A DNA stretch of 9,240 nucleotides from Escherichia coli (GTDB lineage: Bacteria; Pseudomonadota; Gammaproteobacteria; Enterobacterales; Enterobacteriaceae), in the NCBI RefSeq assembly GCF_003334385.1, contig NZ_QOWN01000070.1; one strand, written 5' to 3'. Each line of letters opens with the position of its first letter. The stretch's first letter is position 1. Positions 1 to 9,240 of the stretch are shown here, piece after piece. The notes under the pieces are model-generated. The model was not told the DNA's origin. It worked only from the letters and a program-made list of their open reading frames with translations, and did no database searches. Position numbers and translations under genes: made by a program.

Positions 1-34
1 AGGGGCTGAAGCCGCATTTCTGTATCACCATGAA

Positions 35-216
35 CATGGTGCCGGGTGCCTCCCGGTGAGTTCAGCCCGGTGCCACTAAACCCGCGTCATTCTCGTTTTG
101 ATAATCAGAGATTATACCGTCACCAGTCGCCCCTCCGCTCAGGGGGATTCACCATGCGAAATTTTTTTAACAAATGCCCAGTCTGACAGGCAACTGTCAA
201 CTTACTGAATTGTGAG
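35..216. repeat. Copy A of a ~180-bp imperfect direct repeat with hairpin-forming cores; candidate structured RNA or sRNA unit
   Basis: Three blocks recur about 483-484 bp downstream in the same order: 35-65 is identical to 519-549 (31/31), 129-157 matches 612-640 (28/29), and 205-216 is identical to 688-699. Block 1 contains the inverted repeat ccggg-tgcct-cccgg; block 2 contains cccct-ccgctc-agggg. Confidence 0.6.
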
Positions 217-253
217 CAACATAGCATTTAACGGGGAACCTGTTTTCTGCAGT

Positions 254-280
254 AAAAAGGCCCACCGGAGCGGATGGGCC
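254..280 (-). terminator. Intrinsic (rho-independent) terminator, minus-strand orientation
   Basis: A-run 254-258 followed by GC-rich hairpin ggccca-ccg-gag-cgg-a-tgggcc (259-280); on the minus strand this is a hairpin followed by UUUUU. Confidence 0.55.
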
Positions 281-471
281 TGGAAGGATAGCGGTCATGT
301 GATGCCGGTTTCCCGGTAACTCAGCACCGGTATCTGAGTCAACGTTTTCTCTACTGGGTCATTTCCGATACGCCCTGCCTGCTGACAGGCTTTCATCACA
401 TCTGAAAATATAGCACCCTGACTGATACTGTAGTACCCAAGGTTCCAGAAACTGTGATGTATCCGGCACAG

Positions 472-494
472 AAAAGCCCCTCCGGAGAGGGGCT
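472..494 (-). terminator. Intrinsic terminator, minus-strand orientation
   Basis: Perfect 8-bp inverted repeat agcccctc / gaggggct with loop cgga (475-494), preceded on plus by gaaaa; the minus-strand RNA is a hairpin followed by UUUUCUGUG. Confidence 0.55.
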
Positions 495-518
495 GGAGAG
501 TGGCGCTATGTGCCATTG

Positions 519-699
519 CATGGTGCCGGGTGCCTCCCGGTGAGTTCAGTATCAGCACCTGAACCCGCACAGAAAGGATAAGGGTCGGTGACAAAACACC
601 AGTTGCTGATTGCCCCTCCGCACAGGGGGATTCACCATGCCAGTTTCTTTTAACAAACTCCCCGCAAACCAGACAACAGTCAACCGCCTGAATTGTGAG
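519..699. repeat. Copy B of the ~180-bp structured repeat
   Basis: Same three conserved blocks as copy A (519-549, 612-640, 688-699) with diverged spacers. A second hairpin in both copies (gttcag...ctgaac in B, gttcag...ctaaac in A) varies between copies. Confidence 0.6.
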
Positions 700-704
700 A
701 CATT

Positions 705-729
705 TAAAAAAAAGCCCGCAAAAGCGAGC
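705..729 (-). terminator. Intrinsic terminator downstream of the tRNA cluster, minus-strand orientation
   Basis: A-run 705-713 then hairpin gcccgc-aaaa-gcgagc (714-729). The single C/A mismatch on plus becomes a G-U wobble in the minus-strand RNA, followed by eight or more U. Confidence 0.6.
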
Positions 730-744
730 CAGGGAAAATAAGTG

Positions 745-821
745 TGGCGCGTTCTACTGTATTCGAACCAGTGACCGATTGCTTAGAAGGCAATTGCTCT
801 GTCCGGCTGAGCTAACAACGC
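745..821 (-). tRNA. tRNA-Arg (anticodon UCU), phage-type (argO-like position)
   Basis: Minus-strand read: GCGTTGT-TA-GCTC-AGCCGGACA-GAGC-A-ATTGC-CTTCTAA-GCAAT-CGGTC-ACTGG-TTCGAAT-ACAGT-AGAACGC-G-CCA. D and anticodon stems are perfect, the T-loop is TTCGAAT, and the 3' CCA is encoded. One mismatch each in the acceptor stem and T-stem. Confidence 0.7.
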
Positions 822-834
822 AGGATACAGATAA

Positions 835-911
835 TGAACCGCCTTCGGGGACCCGAACTCCGCGCAACCAGCTTCGAAGGCTGGCGCTCTTTCCTGATGA
901 GCTAATGGCGG
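835..911 (-). tRNA. tRNA-like gene, possibly tRNA-Arg (anticodon UCG) or a degenerate tRNA pseudogene (argN-like position)
   Basis: Minus-strand read: CCGCCAT-TA-GCTC-ATCAGGAAA-GAGC-G-CCAGC-CTTCGAA-GCTGG-TTGCG-CGGAG-TTCGGGT-CCCCG-AAGGCGG-T-TCA. D and anticodon arms are perfect, but the T-loop is non-canonical (TTCGGGT), acceptor and T stems each carry one mismatch, and the 3' end reads TCA rather than CCA. Confidence 0.4.
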
Positions 912-918
912 TATGTGA

Positions 919-994
919 TGGTGGCCCTTGCTGGATTTGAACCAGCGACCTGGCGATTATGAGTCGCTCACTCTCACCACTGAGCTAAAGGGCC
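919..994 (-). tRNA. tRNA with anticodon CAU (tRNA-Ile2 or tRNA-Met type; ileZ-like position)
   Basis: Minus-strand read: GGCCCTT-TA-GCTC-AGTGGTGA-GAGT-G-AGCGA-CTCATAA-TCGCC-AGGTC-GCTGG-TTCAAAT-CCAGC-AAGGGCC-A-CCA. Acceptor and T stems are perfect, the T-loop is canonical, CCA is encoded; 76 nt. Confidence 0.75.
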
Positions 995-3512: not shown

Positions 3513-4727
3513 ATGACAATTGCTGATGACTTATCAAGATTAGCGCAGATTATTAACGGAGCCTCAAGCAGAGTTGAGGGCTACTACACTGTCATAAGTC
3601 TTGAAGAAAGCATTGTTATTGTAAATAGTTCTGAAATAATTAGACTGTTACAATCTATAGGTTATAAAAAGGCAACAACCTGCATCGAAAATAATGAAAT
3701 TTGGCTAGATCGCCAAGCTTCATCTTGGGATGACGCTATAATTTATGAGAATGTTGAGTCTTTTTGGTCTAGAGTAAACACCCAAAACGCTCTTCCGAAA
3801 AATTATATCATCGGAACGCCGTTAATACTCCCTACTTCTAAGAATGAAAGCATCGAAAAAATCCATATTTTCTTTATGTGGAAAGATATCCTTTCATTAA
3901 TTGCTGATCATCATAACAGTGACTGCTCTGTCTTATTTTTCACCAATGAAGACAAAAGTTATACAGTCGAACTCACGCATTTTTTACAATATAGCGAGAT
4001 TAATCGCTTATCGAACTCGTCTCTTAAATATGAAATTATAAAGGAGCTTCTCGACACAATAAAAATCAATGATTTACACAAAAGCGAGCGCAAGCTCGTT
4101 ATACGCTCAGCCATAAACGAAGTATTTAAAGCAAATGGTACGTTCAATTTCTTTGACTTGCTTAACTCTACTGAACTCGTCAGGAAAAAATATGATGAAC
4201 TATATGAGATTTACACAAAGAGGTTTTCTGTAAATAAAATTCTTAACGAACTCGATGAGAAAAATCTTGAGTTCACGAGTAAAATTAACGAATTCATATC
4301 ATCTAATCAGACAAAAGCATTGACTATTCCCGGTGCATTAATAGCTGCTGGTGGCTTAGTGAAGGCTAATGAAACAACCGAAGCAATATTGATTATCGCA
4401 GGACTTTGGATGATAAAAAAAGTCAATTACATTTCTATTGAGATATTCAATGAAACATTCGACAACTTACGTTCTCGAGTGGAGTCCGCTTTCGATAAGT
4501 ATTTAAAGTTTGAAGAAAATAAAGAAATCAAAGATAATGCAGATAGTATTAAGAGTAGCATTACAGGTTTGATTGATAAAGCTAAAAAAAGGATGAGAAC
4601 TGTTAAATATCTCGCATCAGCCATGTTTTATGGAGGCCTTATTTACGTTGGATATAAACAGTTCCCAGTCTTTTTTGAAAAATCGGCAGTAAATCTATTT
4701 TATTTTTTATGCCATACTATAAGCTAA
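3513..4727 (+). CDS. Cassette gene 2: predicted membrane-associated protein of unknown function (candidate effector)
   Basis: ORF track, 404 aa. The ATG lies 2 nt after the gene 1 stop, indicating an operon. AT-rich. Hydrophobic segments ALTIPGALIAAGGLV and AILIIAGLWMI (about nt 4318-4420) and the C-terminal YLASAMFYGGLIYVGY (about nt 4608-4680). No catalytic motif recognised. Confidence 0.8.
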   Translation: MTIADDLSRLAQIINGASSRVEGYYTVISLEESIVIVNSSEIIRLLQSIGYKKATTCIENNEIWLDRQASSWDDAIIYENVESFWSRVNTQNALPKNYIIGTPLILPTSKNESIEKIHIFFMWKDILSLIADHHNSDCSVLFFTNEDKSYTVELTHFLQYSEINRLSNSSLKYEIIKELLDTIKINDLHKSERKLVIRSAINEVFKANGTFNFFDLLNSTELVRKKYDELYEIYTKRFSVNKILNELDEKNLEFTSKINEFISSNQTKALTIPGALIAAGGLVKANETTEAILIIAGLWMIKKVNYISIEIFNETFDNLRSRVESAFDKYLKFEENKEIKDNADSIKSSITGLIDKAKKRMRTVKYLASAMFYGGLIYVGYKQFPVFFEKSAVNLFYFLCHTIS

Positions 4728-5063
4728 CATTGCTAAACAGCCGTCAACAAACCCCATTGCAGTTTGCAGTTCCTTCCTAATTGTGCCATCAGAGCATTTT
4801 CTCTTCTTCGCAATAGTACGTAATGAGATACCGATAACAAAGTGGGCGATGATGAGCTCATATTCCTCTGGTTTATACCTTCTCAACCGAGCCACACAAC
4901 TGTCTATCATGATGCCTTCGTCATCATCACACTGAATCCGTGACTTTTTGCCATGAGGTAAAAGTCCCTTGAAACCAGCCGCTATCGGCTGCCAGTCCAC
5001 TCCGCTATTGTCTGAAGCAGCCCAAGCTCCCCAACGATCCATTACTTCATACATATCACGCAT
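4707..5063 (-). CDS. Phage antitermination protein Q (QuuD-like small Q family)
   Basis: The ORF track calls 4707..5078 from a TTG. I prefer the in-frame ATG at 5061-5063, which has GGAGA 6 nt upstream and gives MRDMYEVMDRWGAWAA..., matching the M-R-D...ERWGAWAA start I recall for DLP12 QuuD-type Q proteins. The 3' end overlaps cassette gene 2 convergently by 21 bp. Confidence 0.75.
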   Translation of the reverse strand: MRDMYEVMDRWGAWAASDNSGVDWQPIAAGFKGLLPHGKKSRIQCDDDEGIMIDSCVARLRRYKPEEYELIIAHFVIGISLRTIAKKRKCSDGTIRKELQTAMGFVDGCLAMLAYSMA

Positions 5064-5080
5064 CAACTTTCTCCACAAAA

Positions 5081-6100
5081 TCAGGCCAGCACACCAATTG
5101 CCAGCGCACGATCGATAAAACGAAATATCAACTCCAGCTGGGAGCCATACTTCTCTTCAAATGCCACGGTATCCGCATGCAGCTCGTCGTGATGCTTTCT
5201 GCACAAAGGCAACACAAAGAGATCATGCGCTTTTGTACCCATTCCCCCCTGACCGTGGCCTATCAGATGGTGGGGATCATCAGCAGGCTTTCCACAACAT
5301 GCACACGGCTGCGTCTTAACCCAGCGCGTGTACTTTTCATTAACCCAGCGGCGACGTTTGGGGCGTAACATAAAAGACTCCGGCGACTCCGGATCCACTT
5401 TCAGCGCCAGCACCTTTTTCGCTTTATCCTGGATGATGCTGGTGGCAGGAACCGAAGGCACAAGGTCACTTTCCCGGGTGACAGACGGCACAACAGGCTT
5501 CGGTAATCTCAGTGCCTTACGGGCTGCACTTTCCGGTAAGGCATCCGCCAGGTCATTACGAATCAGCCACCAGCACAGTTCCGGCATTGTCACAACGTGA
5601 CTGTCATCAAAACCAAGATCACGGCGCACAACAGATAACACCCAGCGGGCACAGTTATCCGTTGCCATTGCTTCCAGCCGTTCCGTGAACTGGTCACGGA
5701 GAAGATTGTCACAGTGCCAGCACAGACGGATTGCACCCGGCGCGTGTCGCATTGTGGTCATGTTCTCGCTGTGCCATCCGGAATGAGGCCACTGACAGCC
5801 CTTTTCACGAAGTAACCAGCTTTCAAGACATTCCACCCCACCAGTACAACGAATAACTGCCTCATTGCGGAACACGGCCCGAACGGCAGGATCATCCGCC
5901 AGCGGTTGTGATGCTGCCGGAACGGCACCGCTGGCGAAAGATGAATAACGTTCCGGCTCAGGCTCCAGCAGGACACGCCCCTGCATAAACAGGGGCATCA
6001 GCTCTGAACCGGGCCTGAACAATACAATCCCCATACGCGGGGCAATTTCAGGGGTCAGCAGTGCTCTCACGGTCACCTCAGCAAACGATATTGAATGCAT
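5081..6100 (-). CDS. DUF968-like phage protein with a C-terminal Cys/His (HNH-like) motif
   Basis: ORF track, 339 aa, ATG start. The C-terminal motif CACCGKPADDPHHLIGHGQGG...LPLCRKHHDELH resembles the YdfU/DUF968 family found just upstream of Q in E. coli prophages. From memory. Confidence 0.7.
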   Translation of the reverse strand: MHSISFAEVTVRALLTPEIAPRMGIVLFRPGSELMPLFMQGRVLLEPEPERYSSFASGAVPAASQPLADDPAVRAVFRNEAVIRCTGGVECLESWLLREKGCQWPHSGWHSENMTTMRHAPGAIRLCWHCDNLLRDQFTERLEAMATDNCARWVLSVVRRDLGFDDSHVVTMPELCWWLIRNDLADALPESAARKALRLPKPVVPSVTRESDLVPSVPATSIIQDKAKKVLALKVDPESPESFMLRPKRRRWVNEKYTRWVKTQPCACCGKPADDPHHLIGHGQGGMGTKAHDLFVLPLCRKHHDELHADTVAFEEKYGSQLELIFRFIDRALAIGVLA

Positions 6101-6121: not shown

Positions 6122-6379
6122 TCACGCAGTAAACTCCTTCACCAGTATTTCAAACTGGCTTACCTGTCCTTCCAGTTCCGCCACGCAATCCACCAGCTCA
6201 TCCACCGCCTTTTGTGTGCGGTGTTTTGCCTGCAGCAGATCACGAAGCGCCGGAGTAAGCTGCTTGCGGAGCGTATCTTTTTTCACGCTCGTTTTTTCCA
6301 TCTGTTCAGCACAACGAAGCATCTCCTGCGCCTGCCGACGAAGTTGTTCCGGTGAAACAGTGATTGTTCTGTTGTTCAA
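6122..6379 (-). CDS. Hypothetical small phage protein (85 aa, predicted helical)
   Basis: ORF track; TTG start overlapping the helicase stop (TTGA), with GGAG about 8 nt upstream; no in-frame ATG until residue 20. Charged, helix-like composition. No family recognised. Confidence 0.45.
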   Translation of the reverse strand: MNNRTITVSPEQLRRQAQEMLRCAEQMEKTSVKKDTLRKQLTPALRDLLQAKHRTQKAVDELVDCVAELEGQVSQFEILVKEFTA

Positions 6380-7776
6380 AATAAACGCTCCGTTTTACTG
6401 CCCGACATGCGGTTATTGCTGTATCTGCGCGGATTGCCCGGCGTCATGGGTGTGGAAAGAACCCGGGCACTCTCCTGGTCCACAGGCAGAAAATGTCCGT
6501 TATGAAAACGCCGGTAAATGGTCCCGAGCGTGCCATTACGCTGTTTCGTGATGTTGATTTCTGCTATGCCTCTGGCCTGAGTTTCCGGGTTGTATACCTC
6601 ATCCCTGTAAAGCATCAGAATGATGTCGGCATCCGCCTCGATTTCCCCGGAGTTTTTCAGGTCCGAGTTCATTGGGCGTTTATTGGGTCTGGATTCCACG
6701 CCGCGGGAGAGCTGGCTCAGAGCAATCAGCGGAAAACCGCCGGATTTTGCCAGGCTTTTAAGTCCCTTTGAGATTTCCCCCACCGCAAGGTCGTGACGCC
6801 CCGTGCTGCGGGTTTTAATCAGGCCGAGGTAATCGACCACCACCAGCGCCGTTTCCGGGTGTTTCATCCGGTGGTGCTTCGTGGTTGCACATATCTCATC
6901 AATGGTCAGGTTTGCCTGGTCCACCATCCAGATATTACGCCCCGTCATTCGTCCCACGCCCTGCGAGAAACGCGCCCAGTCTTCATCTTCAAAACGGGCA
7001 ACAGACTTAAGACGGGATACCGGCATTCCACCGGCAGCAGACACCATACGTTCACCAATCTGGATGTTCGCCATCTCCATGGTGAACAGAAGCACGCCAT
7101 GCCCCTGCTCAGTCACCTTGTCGATGATGTCCAGCGCAAGTTCGGTTTTCCCCATCGAAGGACGGGCGGCAATGAATACCAGGTCTCCGGGCTCCATACC
7201 GCCCGTTTTTGCGTCCAGTTCATCAATACCGGTCATCAGCGCCCTGGATTTCTCCAGTCCCTGATTGCGGCATTCAACACGGTCGACCACTTCCGGAAGG
7301 ACATCATCAATGTGAACCGGCTGAATGACGCCCTTTCCGGTCGACAGTGAGGCCATCATGTTCTGCACATCCTTCAGGGCATCCTCGGCTGCTTCACAGG
7401 TATACGCATCACGTAAATTCTGTAATGCTTCAGTCAGTGTTTTTTCTGCATCGCGCAGTGCGGCATTGCGCCGCAACGCTGCGACATAGTGCTCCAGTGA
7501 AGACTTCACCCAGGTTTTGCGTCCGGTGTCGGTAATCACCGGGGCAAGTTCCGGCATCTCATTGCACAGCAGTACGGGGTCAATGACGCCGGATATGCGA
7601 GCCTGTCTGCAAATCCCCGCGTAAATATCCCGGTACTGACGCACAAAAAATACATCCGCCGGAAGTGTGGCCAGAATATCCATCACTTCCGGATCGGCCC
7701 CACGCAGAAAAAACGCACCGATGACAGCGCCTTCCAGGTCATCGTTACGCCATGCCGGGGTGTTCTGGCTGGTCAT
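6376..7776 (-). CDS. DnaB-family replicative DNA helicase (phage-encoded)
   Basis: ORF track, 466 aa, ATG start with GGAGGTG 7 nt upstream. Walker A ARPSMGKT, and the block ALSQLSRGVESRPNKRPMNSDLKNSGEIEADADIILMLYRDEVY closely parallels E. coli DnaB ([44 protein letters not shown]). Confidence 0.9.
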   Translation of the reverse strand: MTSQNTPAWRNDDLEGAVIGAFFLRGADPEVMDILATLPADVFFVRQYRDIYAGICRQARISGVIDPVLLCNEMPELAPVITDTGRKTWVKSSLEHYVAALRRNAALRDAEKTLTEALQNLRDAYTCEAAEDALKDVQNMMASLSTGKGVIQPVHIDDVLPEVVDRVECRNQGLEKSRALMTGIDELDAKTGGMEPGDLVFIAARPSMGKTELALDIIDKVTEQGHGVLLFTMEMANIQIGERMVSAAGGMPVSRLKSVARFEDEDWARFSQGVGRMTGRNIWMVDQANLTIDEICATTKHHRMKHPETALVVVDYLGLIKTRSTGRHDLAVGEISKGLKSLAKSGGFPLIALSQLSRGVESRPNKRPMNSDLKNSGEIEADADIILMLYRDEVYNPETQARGIAEINITKQRNGTLGTIYRRFHNGHFLPVDQESARVLSTPMTPGNPRRYSNNRMSGSKTERLF

Positions 7777-8672
7777 GCGGCAACACCTCCGATACGAGAA
7801 CGGTAGCTGGGCCAGTTAAACGACAACCAGTTGCGCCCGTCATCGGTGATCCTGTCGGCAATCCGGGGACTGATGAACGCCCACAATTCTTCCGGTGAAA
7901 GATTGCTGATCAAGATAGTTGGCAAAATACCCTCATACCGGGCATTGATAATTTCCTGCAAAATGGCCATTTCAGCCGCACTGCCAAACTGAACGCCGAC
8001 TTCGTCGACAATCAGCAAATCCAGTGACGCATAATGCTCAATGACGTCATCCGCTGTTTTTTCACTGTCATTCCGCCAGCAGTTTTTCACAGCCCGGGTA
8101 AGGCGCATCACGTCGGTGATCTCCACACTGGCCAGATAGTTACGGATGATGTGTTTTGCCATTGATACCGCCAGATGATTTTTCCCGGTACCGCAACTGC
8201 CGGTCATAACAAGACTGGTACCGTTCTCCAGCATATCTGGCCAGTTCTCCGCATAGCGGCGACAGGCCGCAAGATTTCTGGCTGCGTCAGGATTAACCTC
8301 CAGATAATTATCAAACTCGCAGTCCCGAAAACGCAGAGCAATTCCGGCGTTATCAGTCAGTTCTTCCGCCTTGAGGGACGACAGTTCCATGGTCAAATCA
8401 CTGGCCTCAGCGATCAAGCAGTCAGGGCAGCATGAAATTTTTTCTCTGTCCTCGCCATTACGATCGATCCACACCAGTATATGCGTACGATATTTACCGT
8501 GTTTTTCGCAATATCCGCGACCTTCACGCATCAGGCAGGAACGATAAGGCCATGGCTTTTCGCCCTTCTGAGCAAATGCAATCTCTGCCCGTAACTCATC
8601 CATTTCTGCCCGTAAATCATCCATTCGCGCCTGTAGTCTTGTTTGTTTCTCACGTTGGTCAATCGTCATCAT
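7773..8672 (-). CDS. DnaC-like helicase loader (AAA+ ATPase)
   Basis: The ORF track calls 7773..8681 from a GTG. I prefer the ATG at 8670-8672, with GAGGTGA about 5 nt upstream. Walker A GSCGTGKNHLA, Walker B LLIVDEVG, and C-terminal FNWPSYRSR (E. coli DnaC has FNWDSYRSR). The stop overlaps the helicase start (ATGA). Confidence 0.85.
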   Translation of the reverse strand: MMTIDQREKQTRLQARMDDLRAEMDELRAEIAFAQKGEKPWPYRSCLMREGRGYCEKHGKYRTHILVWIDRNGEDREKISCCPDCLIAEASDLTMELSSLKAEELTDNAGIALRFRDCEFDNYLEVNPDAARNLAACRRYAENWPDMLENGTSLVMTGSCGTGKNHLAVSMAKHIIRNYLASVEITDVMRLTRAVKNCWRNDSEKTADDVIEHYASLDLLIVDEVGVQFGSAAEMAILQEIINARYEGILPTILISNLSPEELWAFISPRIADRITDDGRNWLSFNWPSYRSRIGGVAA

Positions 8673-8682
8673 CGCTGTCACC

Positions 8683-9240
8683 TCAGAATGTCAATTTGTT
8701 ACTGGATTTACCAAATTTGTCAGACATGGCTCCCAGGCCAGCCAGGACATCGACCTGTCGCTGTCGCCCACCTCCGTGAGCGGCTGGCTGTTGCCAGTAA
8801 TCTTCGAAGTGACGATCGGGTCCAAAGAACGTCGCAGCCTGCTTCACGAACTGTGTGCCGGTATTTCCTGTAGCACGTACCCAGGCGGCATACCGCTTCA
8901 CGCCATCAAGCATGGTCTCCGGTTTTATTCCCTCCCTGATACGGGCTTTCCAGGCTTTGAAGGCTGCTGACTTGGAATTGCCACCAGCACGTTTGGGATA
9001 TTCCTGCCAGGCCTGTTCAAATTCCGGTGAATATTCCTGTCTGGCAGAACGCGCTGGTGCAGACGCGTCAGCGGATGCGCCAATAGTGTTTTTAGTCTCC
9101 GTTGTAATCTCTGTAGTAATCTCTGTATTTGTATCAACATTCGGCGTATCCCCTGTTCCGTTACGACGTCGGGGGGTGTTCCGTTTTAACGTAATAGCTG
9201 TATCGCTGATTGCATTATTGCTGTTACTTTCTGGCGAAAC
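8683..9240 (-). CDS. Phage replication initiator (O-like replisome organiser), C-terminal part; 5' end lies beyond the window
   Basis: I translated the minus strand by hand from 9240 down to the stop at 8683-8685 and found no in-frame stop. The track's 76-aa ORF (8683..8913) is the tail of this frame. The C-terminal sequence EFEQAWQEYPKRAGGNSKSAAFKAWKARIREGIKPETMLDGVKRYAAWVRATG...FFGPDRHFEDYWQQP resembles the conserved C-terminal domain of lambdoid replication proteins. It sits immediately upstream of the DnaC-like gene. Confidence 0.7.
   Translation of the reverse strand, partial: VSPESNSNNAISDTAITLKRNTPRRRNGTGDTPNVDTNTEITTEITTETKNTIGASADASAPARSARQEYSPEFEQAWQEYPKRAGGNSKSAAFKAWKARIREGIKPETMLDGVKRYAAWVRATGNTGTQFVKQAATFFGPDRHFEDYWQQPAAHGGGRQRQVDVLAGLGAMSDKFGKSSNKLTF
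9104..9127. repeat. Perfect tandem 12-mer (GTAATCTCTGTA x2) inside the O-like gene; candidate iterons
   Basis: 9104-9115 is identical to 9116-9127, with partial copies on both flanks. A 9-mer TGTTCCGTT also recurs at 9155-9163 and 9177-9185. The tandem encodes the TEITTEITTE linker on the minus strand. Confidence 0.55.

Follow-up and report, generated by a model that had tools for sequence, protein, structure and literature searches.

In eight prophages of the Sakai strain, Hfq-crosslinked small RNAs (sRNAs) are encoded at the moron site as convergent pairs (Tree et al., 2014, PMC4104026). Three EHEC RNAs, EcOnc27, EcOnc05 and EcOnc06, were detected there by both northern blotting and Hfq-CRAC (PMC4104026), and the northern probes, as given in the supplement to that paper, map inside units of the STnc100 family. 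EcOnc27 lies 3' of stx2B in Sp5/933W, EcOnc05 in Sp4 and EcOnc06 in Sp17. EcOnc27 is the same RNA as sRNA103, whose overexpression raised fimZ and espA, directly or indirectly (PMC7873438, PMC12711010), and sequence features predictive of haemolytic uraemic syndrome overlap with it (PMC12711010). An STnc100 copy is found 75 nt downstream of stx2, and its RNA was detected in outer-membrane vesicles by RT-PCR (PMC12370729). The literature demonstrates no direct target for an RNA of STnc100 proper, which we count against the regulatory role favoured below.

The other close relatives are PasD1 and PasD2 of EPEC E2348/69, which accumulate as discrete RNAs and for which RIL-seq established association with Hfq (Pearl Mizrahi et al., 2021, PMC8550237). 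PasD and STnc100 have been linked by structure and a common origin has been proposed for them (Zhu, Shabalina & Storz, 2026, bioRxiv 10.64898/2026.05.13.724894). [quoted passage not shown]

The window analysed here is a 9,240-nt stretch of Escherichia coli DNA, of which positions 1-729 had been described in a first-pass annotation as tandem structured repeats, offered as candidate prophage sRNA genes. We read this interval as a head-to-tail array of three paralogous STnc100-family sRNA genes, all on the minus strand and here called B, M and A in order of transcription; taken jointly with the mode of action discussed below, this reading is, in our judgement, likely correct. The repeats belong to a known, curated Rfam family in its usual genomic slot, and the family is not new.

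When the window was scanned against Rfam 15, the covariance-model search that the first-pass annotation had recommended, units A and B both matched STnc100 (RF02076) on the minus strand at well over the gathering score of 47 bits. Unit B scored 141.4 bits over the full model (669->464) and unit A 134.1 bits (186->1), the latter match being flagged as truncated at the RNA 3' end; the complete copy of unit A in the twin locus of E. coli STEC strain 2018-166 (L001, 9186->8977) reached 165.6 bits. Against R1, our own covariance model built from 42 STnc100-type units only, unit B scored 175.9 bits. An intrinsic 3' terminator is present on the RNA strand of all three units, at 494->475 for B, 281->258 for M and, in L001, 9007->8988 for A. 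Units A and B are members of the STnc100 family.

A repeat search returned a 31-nt block whose copies at 35-65 and 519-549 are 100% identical (spacing 484) and an 88-nt block with 80% identity between 129-216 and 612-699 (spacing 483), both far above chance expectation for 1.5 kb. The two copies about 484 bp apart that had been noticed earlier are real, as is their spacing, but the array holds three units, with starts at 641, 402 and 158; its period is ~240 bp and not 484, because the interval between B and A is a third, diverged unit, M. That interval (281-471) had been described as bounded by terminators, which it is, although it had not been recognised as a family member in itself. The earlier figure of ~180 bp per unit agrees well with the predicted RNAs of ~149-176 nt. 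Terminator-like minus-strand hairpins occur at 730->713, 494->475 and 281->258, out of a scan total of 7 sites against 1.0 expected from shuffles. Each copy does have a minus-strand terminator downstream, as had been proposed, that of A being complete in L001; the hairpin at 730->713, however, is the terminator of a tRNA gene.

The tRNA genes in question, of ileZ type (CAT; tRNA-Ile in RefSeq), argN type (TCG) and argO type (TCT), occupy 745..994 on the minus strand according to ARAGORN, the Rfam tRNA model and the RefSeq annotation of the twin locus. The ileZ-argN-argO series is the tRNA cluster of lambdoid and Stx phages and forms the context of the array, outside which it lies. The terminator of the last tRNA gene (713..730, minus strand; terminator scan and sequence reading), GGCUCGCUUUUGCGGGCU followed by U8, separates these genes from unit B. 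Unit B itself, at 468..640 on the minus strand, is a full STnc100-family sRNA gene of ~173 nt by Rfam, R1, terminator and fold. Its P1 helix pairs 640->633 with 525->518 and encloses P2 (629->613), a variable region (612->567), P3 (566->542) and P4 (540->526), after which a variable linker (517->495) leads into the terminator (494->475) and its U-tract. Where unit B lies in the twin locus, PGAP annotates a pseudogene ("hypothetical protein") on the other strand.

Unit A (1..157, minus strand; Rfam) ends within its terminator at the window edge and would be ~176 nt long when complete. The window and strain 2018-166 are 99.9% identical over positions 1-1100, and in that near-identical locus bases 1-7 of the window, read 7->1 in unit A, form the first arm of the unit's own terminator (AGCCCCUCUCCGGAGGGGCUUUCUU), the stem of which lies at 8988-9007 in L001; ~20-25 nt of unit A thus fall outside the window. 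Beyond unit A, L001 carries a convergent short sRNA-like element and then an esterase gene, and no further STnc100-type unit. Since position 1 is inside A's own terminator and L001 holds no additional unit, the array ends at unit A and does not run on upstream of the window start, contrary to what the first-pass annotation had thought probable.

Unit M (253..401, minus strand, ~149 nt) is a diverged paralogue. At a relaxed threshold it aligns over its full length with RF02076 (425->252) at 30.1 bits, with an E-value of 4e-5 on a 231-nt stretch, and so lies below the 47-bit gathering score. R1 gives it 35.2 bits (E 1e-9) and gives PasD1 and PasD2 31 bits, making M about as distant from STnc100 proper as they are. 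The unconstrained minimum-energy fold of M is the family architecture, and it is completed by the terminator at 281->258. Its P1 is AUGUGAUG/CAUCACAU, against GCAUGGUG/CACCAUGC in A and B, with both strands changed; its P2 is GCCUG...CAGGC, its P3 ACUCAG...CUGAGU, against GGGUUCAG/CUGAACUC, and its P4 CCGG-GAAA-CCGG. The architecture of M has therefore been kept through changes on both strands of its helices. As MAFFT misplaced the 5' end of M when aligning it with A and B, a covariance-model alignment was used for this comparison. Unit M is a third paralogue, a homologue that falls outside the curated family boundary just as PasD does. M-type sequence is present, unannotated, in 673 of 5,426 complete E. 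coli genomes (~12%), and unit M is kept at >=99% identity in ~347 E. coli genomes. The B-M-A arrangement recurs in several of the 80 esterase viral contigs considered below and also, in a version with 90% identity, in an unrelated prophage that lacks the esterase.

The fold shared by the units consists of the closing helix P1, then P2, P3 and P4, a linker and the terminator. For 42 units aligned by MAFFT without regard to structure, RNAalifold gave a consensus of 35 pairs, and 99.4% of cells were paired. Double-sided changes affected ten of these 35 pairs. Shuffling the columns 500 times never produced the observed values, and when the partners were displaced by 1-3 columns as a control, pairing fell to 38-52%. 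In a model-fitted alignment of 120 distinct Enterobacterales units, 29 of 35 pairs had changed on both sides while 96% of cells remained paired. The secondary structure is kept by compensatory changes, so the comparison of homologues that had been proposed as a check finds the hairpins maintained by paired substitutions. Among the 42 units the covariation sits in P1 and P3, and P2 (CCCCC/GGGGG) and P4 (CCGGG-AGGCA-CCCGG) are invariant. A switch based on cross-pairing between P2 and the terminator, which appeared in the minimum-energy fold of A and B, was dropped because it is not kept in M, in PasD or in units with other terminators.

The internal hairpin had been seen to differ between the two copies, and this difference is genuine: in RNA sense it reads GGGUUCAG/CUGAACUC in B and GGGUUUAG/CUGAACUC in A, a U.G wobble on minus-strand RNA. 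The corresponding pair, 90:105, is CG in 29 units and UG in 12, and the wobble is possible on the minus-strand RNA only. Pair 86:109 is G.U in 38 of 41 units, where the opposite strand would give an A.C mismatch, and the terminator U-tracts follow their hairpins on the minus strand only. The U-tracts, the frequent G.U pairs and the wobble between A and B together identify the minus strand of the window as the RNA strand, an assignment that the covariance models likewise support. Thermodynamic z-scores did not separate the strands (-2.40 vs -2.41).

No reading frame is open across the homologous units, all six being interrupted in some of them, and the shortest stop-free runs span 12-25 codons in units of ~60 codons. 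The ORFs present are short, and those of A and B do not correspond. There is no conserved reading frame and no small protein-coding gene by this test, in line with the earlier remark that the region lacks a convincing ORF. A 33-aa ORF in unit M was compared by eye with the DUF3927 peptide that precedes PasD2, and no resemblance was seen. It might still be argued that the repeats are inert products of prophage recombination, which must be frequent here given the mosaic make-up of the units, or that they encode small proteins, as the PGAP pseudogene on the opposite strand of unit B and the 33-codon ORF inside unit M could suggest. With no frame shared across units, differing ORFs in A and B, helices kept by covariation, strong Rfam matches and homologues known to be expressed (PMC4104026), we regard both versions of this argument as extremely unlikely.

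Upstream of the E. coli units, conservation extends to a TTG.C. hexamer, an 18-nt spacer and the sequence TGTTAAAAA, which ends 6 nt before GCAUGG. Across 160 distinct upstream regions, stringent sigma-70-type matches peak where the -10 element starts 14-9 nt before P1, over a background of ~1 per position. The predicted promoter of unit B (647..676, minus strand) has the -35 hexamer TTGTCT (676->671), an 18-nt spacer and the extended -10 TGTTAAAAG (655->647). That of unit A (164..193, minus strand) has TTGCCT (193->188), the same spacer length and the extended -10 TGTTAAAAA (172->164). For unit M, sequence reading gives a strong predicted extended -10, TGCTATATT (407..415, minus strand); no recognisable -35 precedes it, and the 90%-identical M variant of strain CRE1493 carries it unchanged. 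A strict canonical -35/-10 scan returned no promoter for any of the three units, and the proposed promoters therefore rest on conservation and the extended -10. The -10 hexamers of A and B (TAAAAA, TAAAAG) are weak, which counts against our preferred explanation. PasD carries TTGACT and TAAAAA in the same register as the STnc100-type promoters, and the 5' end of PasD2 determined by RNA-seq is the G equivalent to the unit start (PMC8550237 Table S6). Together these features suggest that the units have sigma-70-type promoters of their own.

The RNAs predicted on this basis run 640->~468 for B, ~401->~253 for M and, for A, from 157 to ~20-25 nt past the window edge. In its own unit, the EHEC EcOnc13 probe falls just 5' of the predicted start, and sizes of 177-247 nt on northern blots are on record for family members; from these two observations longer isoforms or read-through products exist, and the predicted 5' ends are accordingly uncertain.

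The annotation of the twin locus gives the order Q-family antiterminator, inserted genes, AraC-type regulator, tRNA-Ile/Arg/Arg and the three units, followed by a SASA-family esterase (nanS-p type), DUF1378, DUF826, holin and lysozyme. The array belongs to the late region of a lambdoid prophage: it has Q/pR' on one side and the lysis genes on the other, reads in the direction of the late operon and fills the "moron" slot that stx occupies in Stx phages; the order in an Stx2a phage is ileZ-argN-argO-stx2A-stx2B-STnc100-esterase. PADLOC found nothing relevant among the neighbouring genes. The esterase protein was used to retrieve 80 viral contigs that carry the esterase; 74 of them have one or more units immediately upstream of it in the same orientation, and in 14 of those 74 the units form arrays of 2-4 with a spacing of ~231-271 bp or ~404 bp. 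A pattern scan of one genome per species, which required exact P2 and P4 motifs and so has most of its cross-genus invariance built in, yielded 82 stretches from genera that include Citrobacter, Enterobacter, Klebsiella, Raoultella, Kosakonia, Leclercia, Pantoea, Serratia, Rahnella and Salmonella (arizonae, diarizonae). R1 recognised 124 units in those loci, frequently grouped in arrays with as many as five members. Holin, endolysin and spanin genes come after the array in Leclercia, and in Enterobacter cancerogenus the array comes directly after NinG and Q; the succession of Q, units and lysis genes is retained in both Leclercia and Enterobacter. Arrays of 2-5 units are common in the STnc100 family. 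With the Rfam matches, the lambdoid late-region setting, the compensatory changes and EHEC homologues that are discrete Hfq-crosslinked RNAs, the initial suggestion of prophage sRNA genes is borne out.

The same arrangement invites a reading in cis, in which the units are promoter-terminator modules that insulate the lysis genes in the lysogen until Q-modified polymerase overrides them, and the RNAs are by-products. Four strong intrinsic terminators do occur in a 730-bp stretch ahead of the lysis cassette, all oriented with late transcription, and the family is always found between Q and the lysis genes in this orientation. Termination, however, needs ~30 nt, whereas a 125-nt 5' domain is conserved here with compensatory changes in P1 and P3; each unit also has its own promoter signal, and homologues bind Hfq and accumulate in lysogens (PMC4104026). 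Lambda 6S (pR'-tR') and StxS are likewise short, terminated late-region transcripts, made constitutively and read through by Q-modified polymerase, and StxS acts in addition as an Hfq-binding sRNA (PMC7873438). The window units are not adjacent to Q as these late-leader RNAs are, but follow the tRNAs (or stx, in Stx phages). No similarity to the lambda pR'-tR' (6S) region was found, the best R1 score in the lambda Q-S interval being 1.1 bits. We therefore consider insulation in cis improbable as the main role of the units.

Compared with the EHEC members of STnc100, the units of the window have the same fold and lie in the same orientation in the same slot, with the late promoter region before them and the esterase and lysis genes after them. 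They differ in following the tRNA genes directly, with neither stx nor another coding moron, and in forming three units in a row, one of which, M, is below the Rfam threshold. The variable segment and linker of B and A also differ from those of the probed EHEC alleles, and none of the published EHEC probes matched the window within 4 mismatches.

PasD1 and PasD2 start at the 5' end with GCAUGGUGAAUCC as the units do, have the P2 and P3 hairpins in common with them and agree in promoter layout and in length (~172 nt), and the PasD slot, just upstream of the esterase gene, is that of the window units. PasD has no STnc100 match at the gathering score, however; its linker carries a UGUGAG seed that is absent from B, M and A, and its terminator differs from that of STnc100-type units. 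Similarity across the whole RNA, seed and terminator included, was not found, and only the 5' start and P2/P3 align. STnc100-type units are moreover in tandem here and at many other loci, which PasD reportedly is not.

The AsxR/AgvB dyads occupy the same moron site downstream of pR' (PMC4104026), and the succession of unit A and a short convergent sRNA-like gene on the opposite strand, outside the window, recalls the dyads of Tree et al. (2014). AsxR and AgvB are nevertheless RNAs of 51-60 nt that belong to a different family and lie on the opposite strand. The convergent partner at this locus resembles EcOnc08/21/42 rather than AsxR or AgvB: it has its own terminator and a sequence that almost matches both an Hfq-associated sRNA candidate of EPEC and the EHEC RNAs EcOnc08/21/42, and against Rfam it gave chance-level matches only. 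AsxR, AgvB (RF02703, RF02702) and Esr41 had no matches in the window or in L001.

We consider it probable that the array represents three independent, terminated sRNA genes whose products are Hfq-associated trans regulators, each combining a conserved 5' scaffold with a 3' part that varies. Each unit would be its own transcription unit, in which a sigma-70-type promoter starts the RNA at the first pair of P1. The RNA, ~150-175 nt long, would open with a 5' domain closed by the 8-bp P1 and enclosing the near-invariant P2 and P4, the freely covarying P3 and a segment that varies; next would come 16-28 nt of variable linker, the intrinsic terminator and a U-tail. The three RNAs may be made in the lysogen from their own promoters and may work in trans, either as regulators that associate with Hfq and base-pair with their targets or as sponges for transcripts of the host or the prophage. 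The 5' domain would then serve as a scaffold and the linker, which differs in B, M and A, would give each unit its own set of targets. As a by-product, the string of terminators may block read-through into the lysis genes until Q-modified polymerase overrides it.

The linker is completely different between B, M and A and is combined with various inner segments among homologues, which indicates modular reshuffling. Linkers are the least conserved segment and are single-stranded in part of the folds. The U-tails are UUUUCU (B), UUUUU (M) and UUUCUU (A), and those of B and A are short or interrupted for Hfq binding, a point against trans regulation through Hfq. It also counts against this explanation that the most conserved parts are structured hairpins and not a single-stranded seed, which is unusual for a base-pairing sRNA. 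Because the hairpins are invariant and the single strands variable, a scaffold or decoy role of the 5' domain has to be considered as well.

Such a role would make the conserved 5' domain, and not a base-pairing seed, the functional part: a structured decoy for, or ligand of, the ribosome or some conserved protein of host or phage, with arrays providing dosage and not target diversity. P2 (CCCCC...GGAGGGG) and P4 (CCGGG-AGGCA-CCCGG) are almost invariant across E. coli units, loops included, and both carry GGAGG-like sequences, whereas the linker and the segment between P2 and P3 are least conserved. The core extends from Salmonella to Pantoea, Serratia and Rahnella, in arrays that reach five units, although most of this cross-genus invariance follows from the exact P2 and P4 motifs that the scan required; 29 units from other genera that fall outside the search pattern still largely keep both motifs. 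M, on the other hand, has changed both hairpins (GCCUG/CAGGC in P2, a GAAA tetraloop in P4) and is nonetheless conserved in ~347 genomes. PasD does not have P4 as drawn here, and its RIL-seq targets are reached through a defined linker seed (PMC8550237). No protein partner besides Hfq is known. On balance a decoy or ligand function seems to us rather unlikely, though by no means negligible. A broader proposal, which we put forward tentatively, is that STnc100, PasD and M form a superfamily and a modular phage RNA system: the 5' domain would have its own task, for example the binding of a conserved factor from host or phage, the inner segment and linker would be reshuffled by recombination to give paralogue-specific targets, and M would be an unannotated third branch.

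Trans regulation by three separate sRNAs remains our preferred reading of an array that in itself offers little that is new. Its additions are incremental: a sub-threshold third paralogue, the 240-bp period, the commonness of tandem arrays, the promoter register and the spread across Enterobacterales. STnc100-type RNAs adjoin stx and lysis genes in pathogenic E. coli, and several features of this locus should be of use to those who study their function. It shows that tandem arrays are common for STnc100-type genes, unlike the copies of PasA and PasD as reported; that a diverged paralogue, M, has been overlooked by standard annotation; and that the conserved part of these RNAs is a structured domain rather than a seed.

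In units A and B, two of the three tandem STnc100-family sRNA genes, the near-invariant P2 hairpin of the 5' domain almost repeats the sequence of the terminator hairpin (GCCCCTCCGCACAGGGG and GCCCCTCCGGAGAGGGG; window 612-628 and 476-492 in unit B, 129-145 in unit A). When a slightly longer stretch was folded without constraints, P2 was predicted to pair with the terminator, rather than both hairpins being formed. Such cross-pairing was not seen in the diverged middle unit M, in the distant EPEC relatives PasD1/PasD2 or in units with other terminators.

Units B and A are each preceded, ahead of the predicted promoter, by a minus-strand leader, CTCACAATTCAG...GTTGAC (685-700 before B, 202-217 before A), whose conservation is specific to E. 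coli. It contains CUCACA, the motif reported as the target of the PasD seed. The northern probe and Hfq peak of the EHEC sRNA EcOnc13 fall just downstream of the leader and before the predicted start, so in at least some prophages transcription does cover this region.

The locus of a 99.9% identical genome (E. coli STEC 2018-166), which completes unit A, also carries a short sRNA-like gene convergent with it (L001 ∼8925-8981, plus strand of the locus) with its own terminator, CACGUUUUAUUGUUUAUUCCUUGCCGCCCGCGUCUCCCAGCGCGGGCUUUUUU. This gene lies 20-75 nt past window position 1, on the strand opposite to the STnc100 units. Its sequence is almost the same as that of E2348C_1409.E2348C_1408.IGR, an sRNA candidate from EPEC RIL-seq, and as that of EHEC EcOnc08/21/42, and together with unit A it forms a "convergent dyad" of the published kind. 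No match between the sRNA-like gene of L001 and any Rfam family was found.

The minus strand also encodes prophage replication and nin-region genes, namely an ORF (5081-6100) that is the positional counterpart of a gene annotated as DUF968 in the twin locus, a DnaB-type helicase (6376-7776) and a DnaC-type loader (7773-8681), confirming the lambdoid prophage context. Directly upstream of the tRNA genes is a minus-strand AraC-family regulator (1023-1736) related to YdeO and GadX (E 4e-31), with a score far below the equivalog cut-off. It resembles the Psr-type regulators encoded by EHEC prophages.

Inserted between the tRNA genes and the Q gene, and oriented against late transcription, are DS1_1, a nucleoid-associated anti-phage protein (2335-3510, plus strand; NCBIfam 451 bits against a curated cut-off of 330), and DS1_2 (3513-4727, plus strand; 375 bits against 315). 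Both scores exceed their cut-offs. The two genes make up the anti-phage system DS1 within the prophage; PADLOC 2023 contains no DS1 model. DS1_2 is convergent with a short Q-like antiterminator ORF (4707-5078, minus strand; 123 aa when read from TTG, whereas the twin genome's annotation gives 107 aa) and overlaps its 3' end by ∼20 bp. Q may have lost its end through insertion of DS1, and the usual region of the late promoter pR' may have gone with it; late transcription of this prophage would then be questionable.
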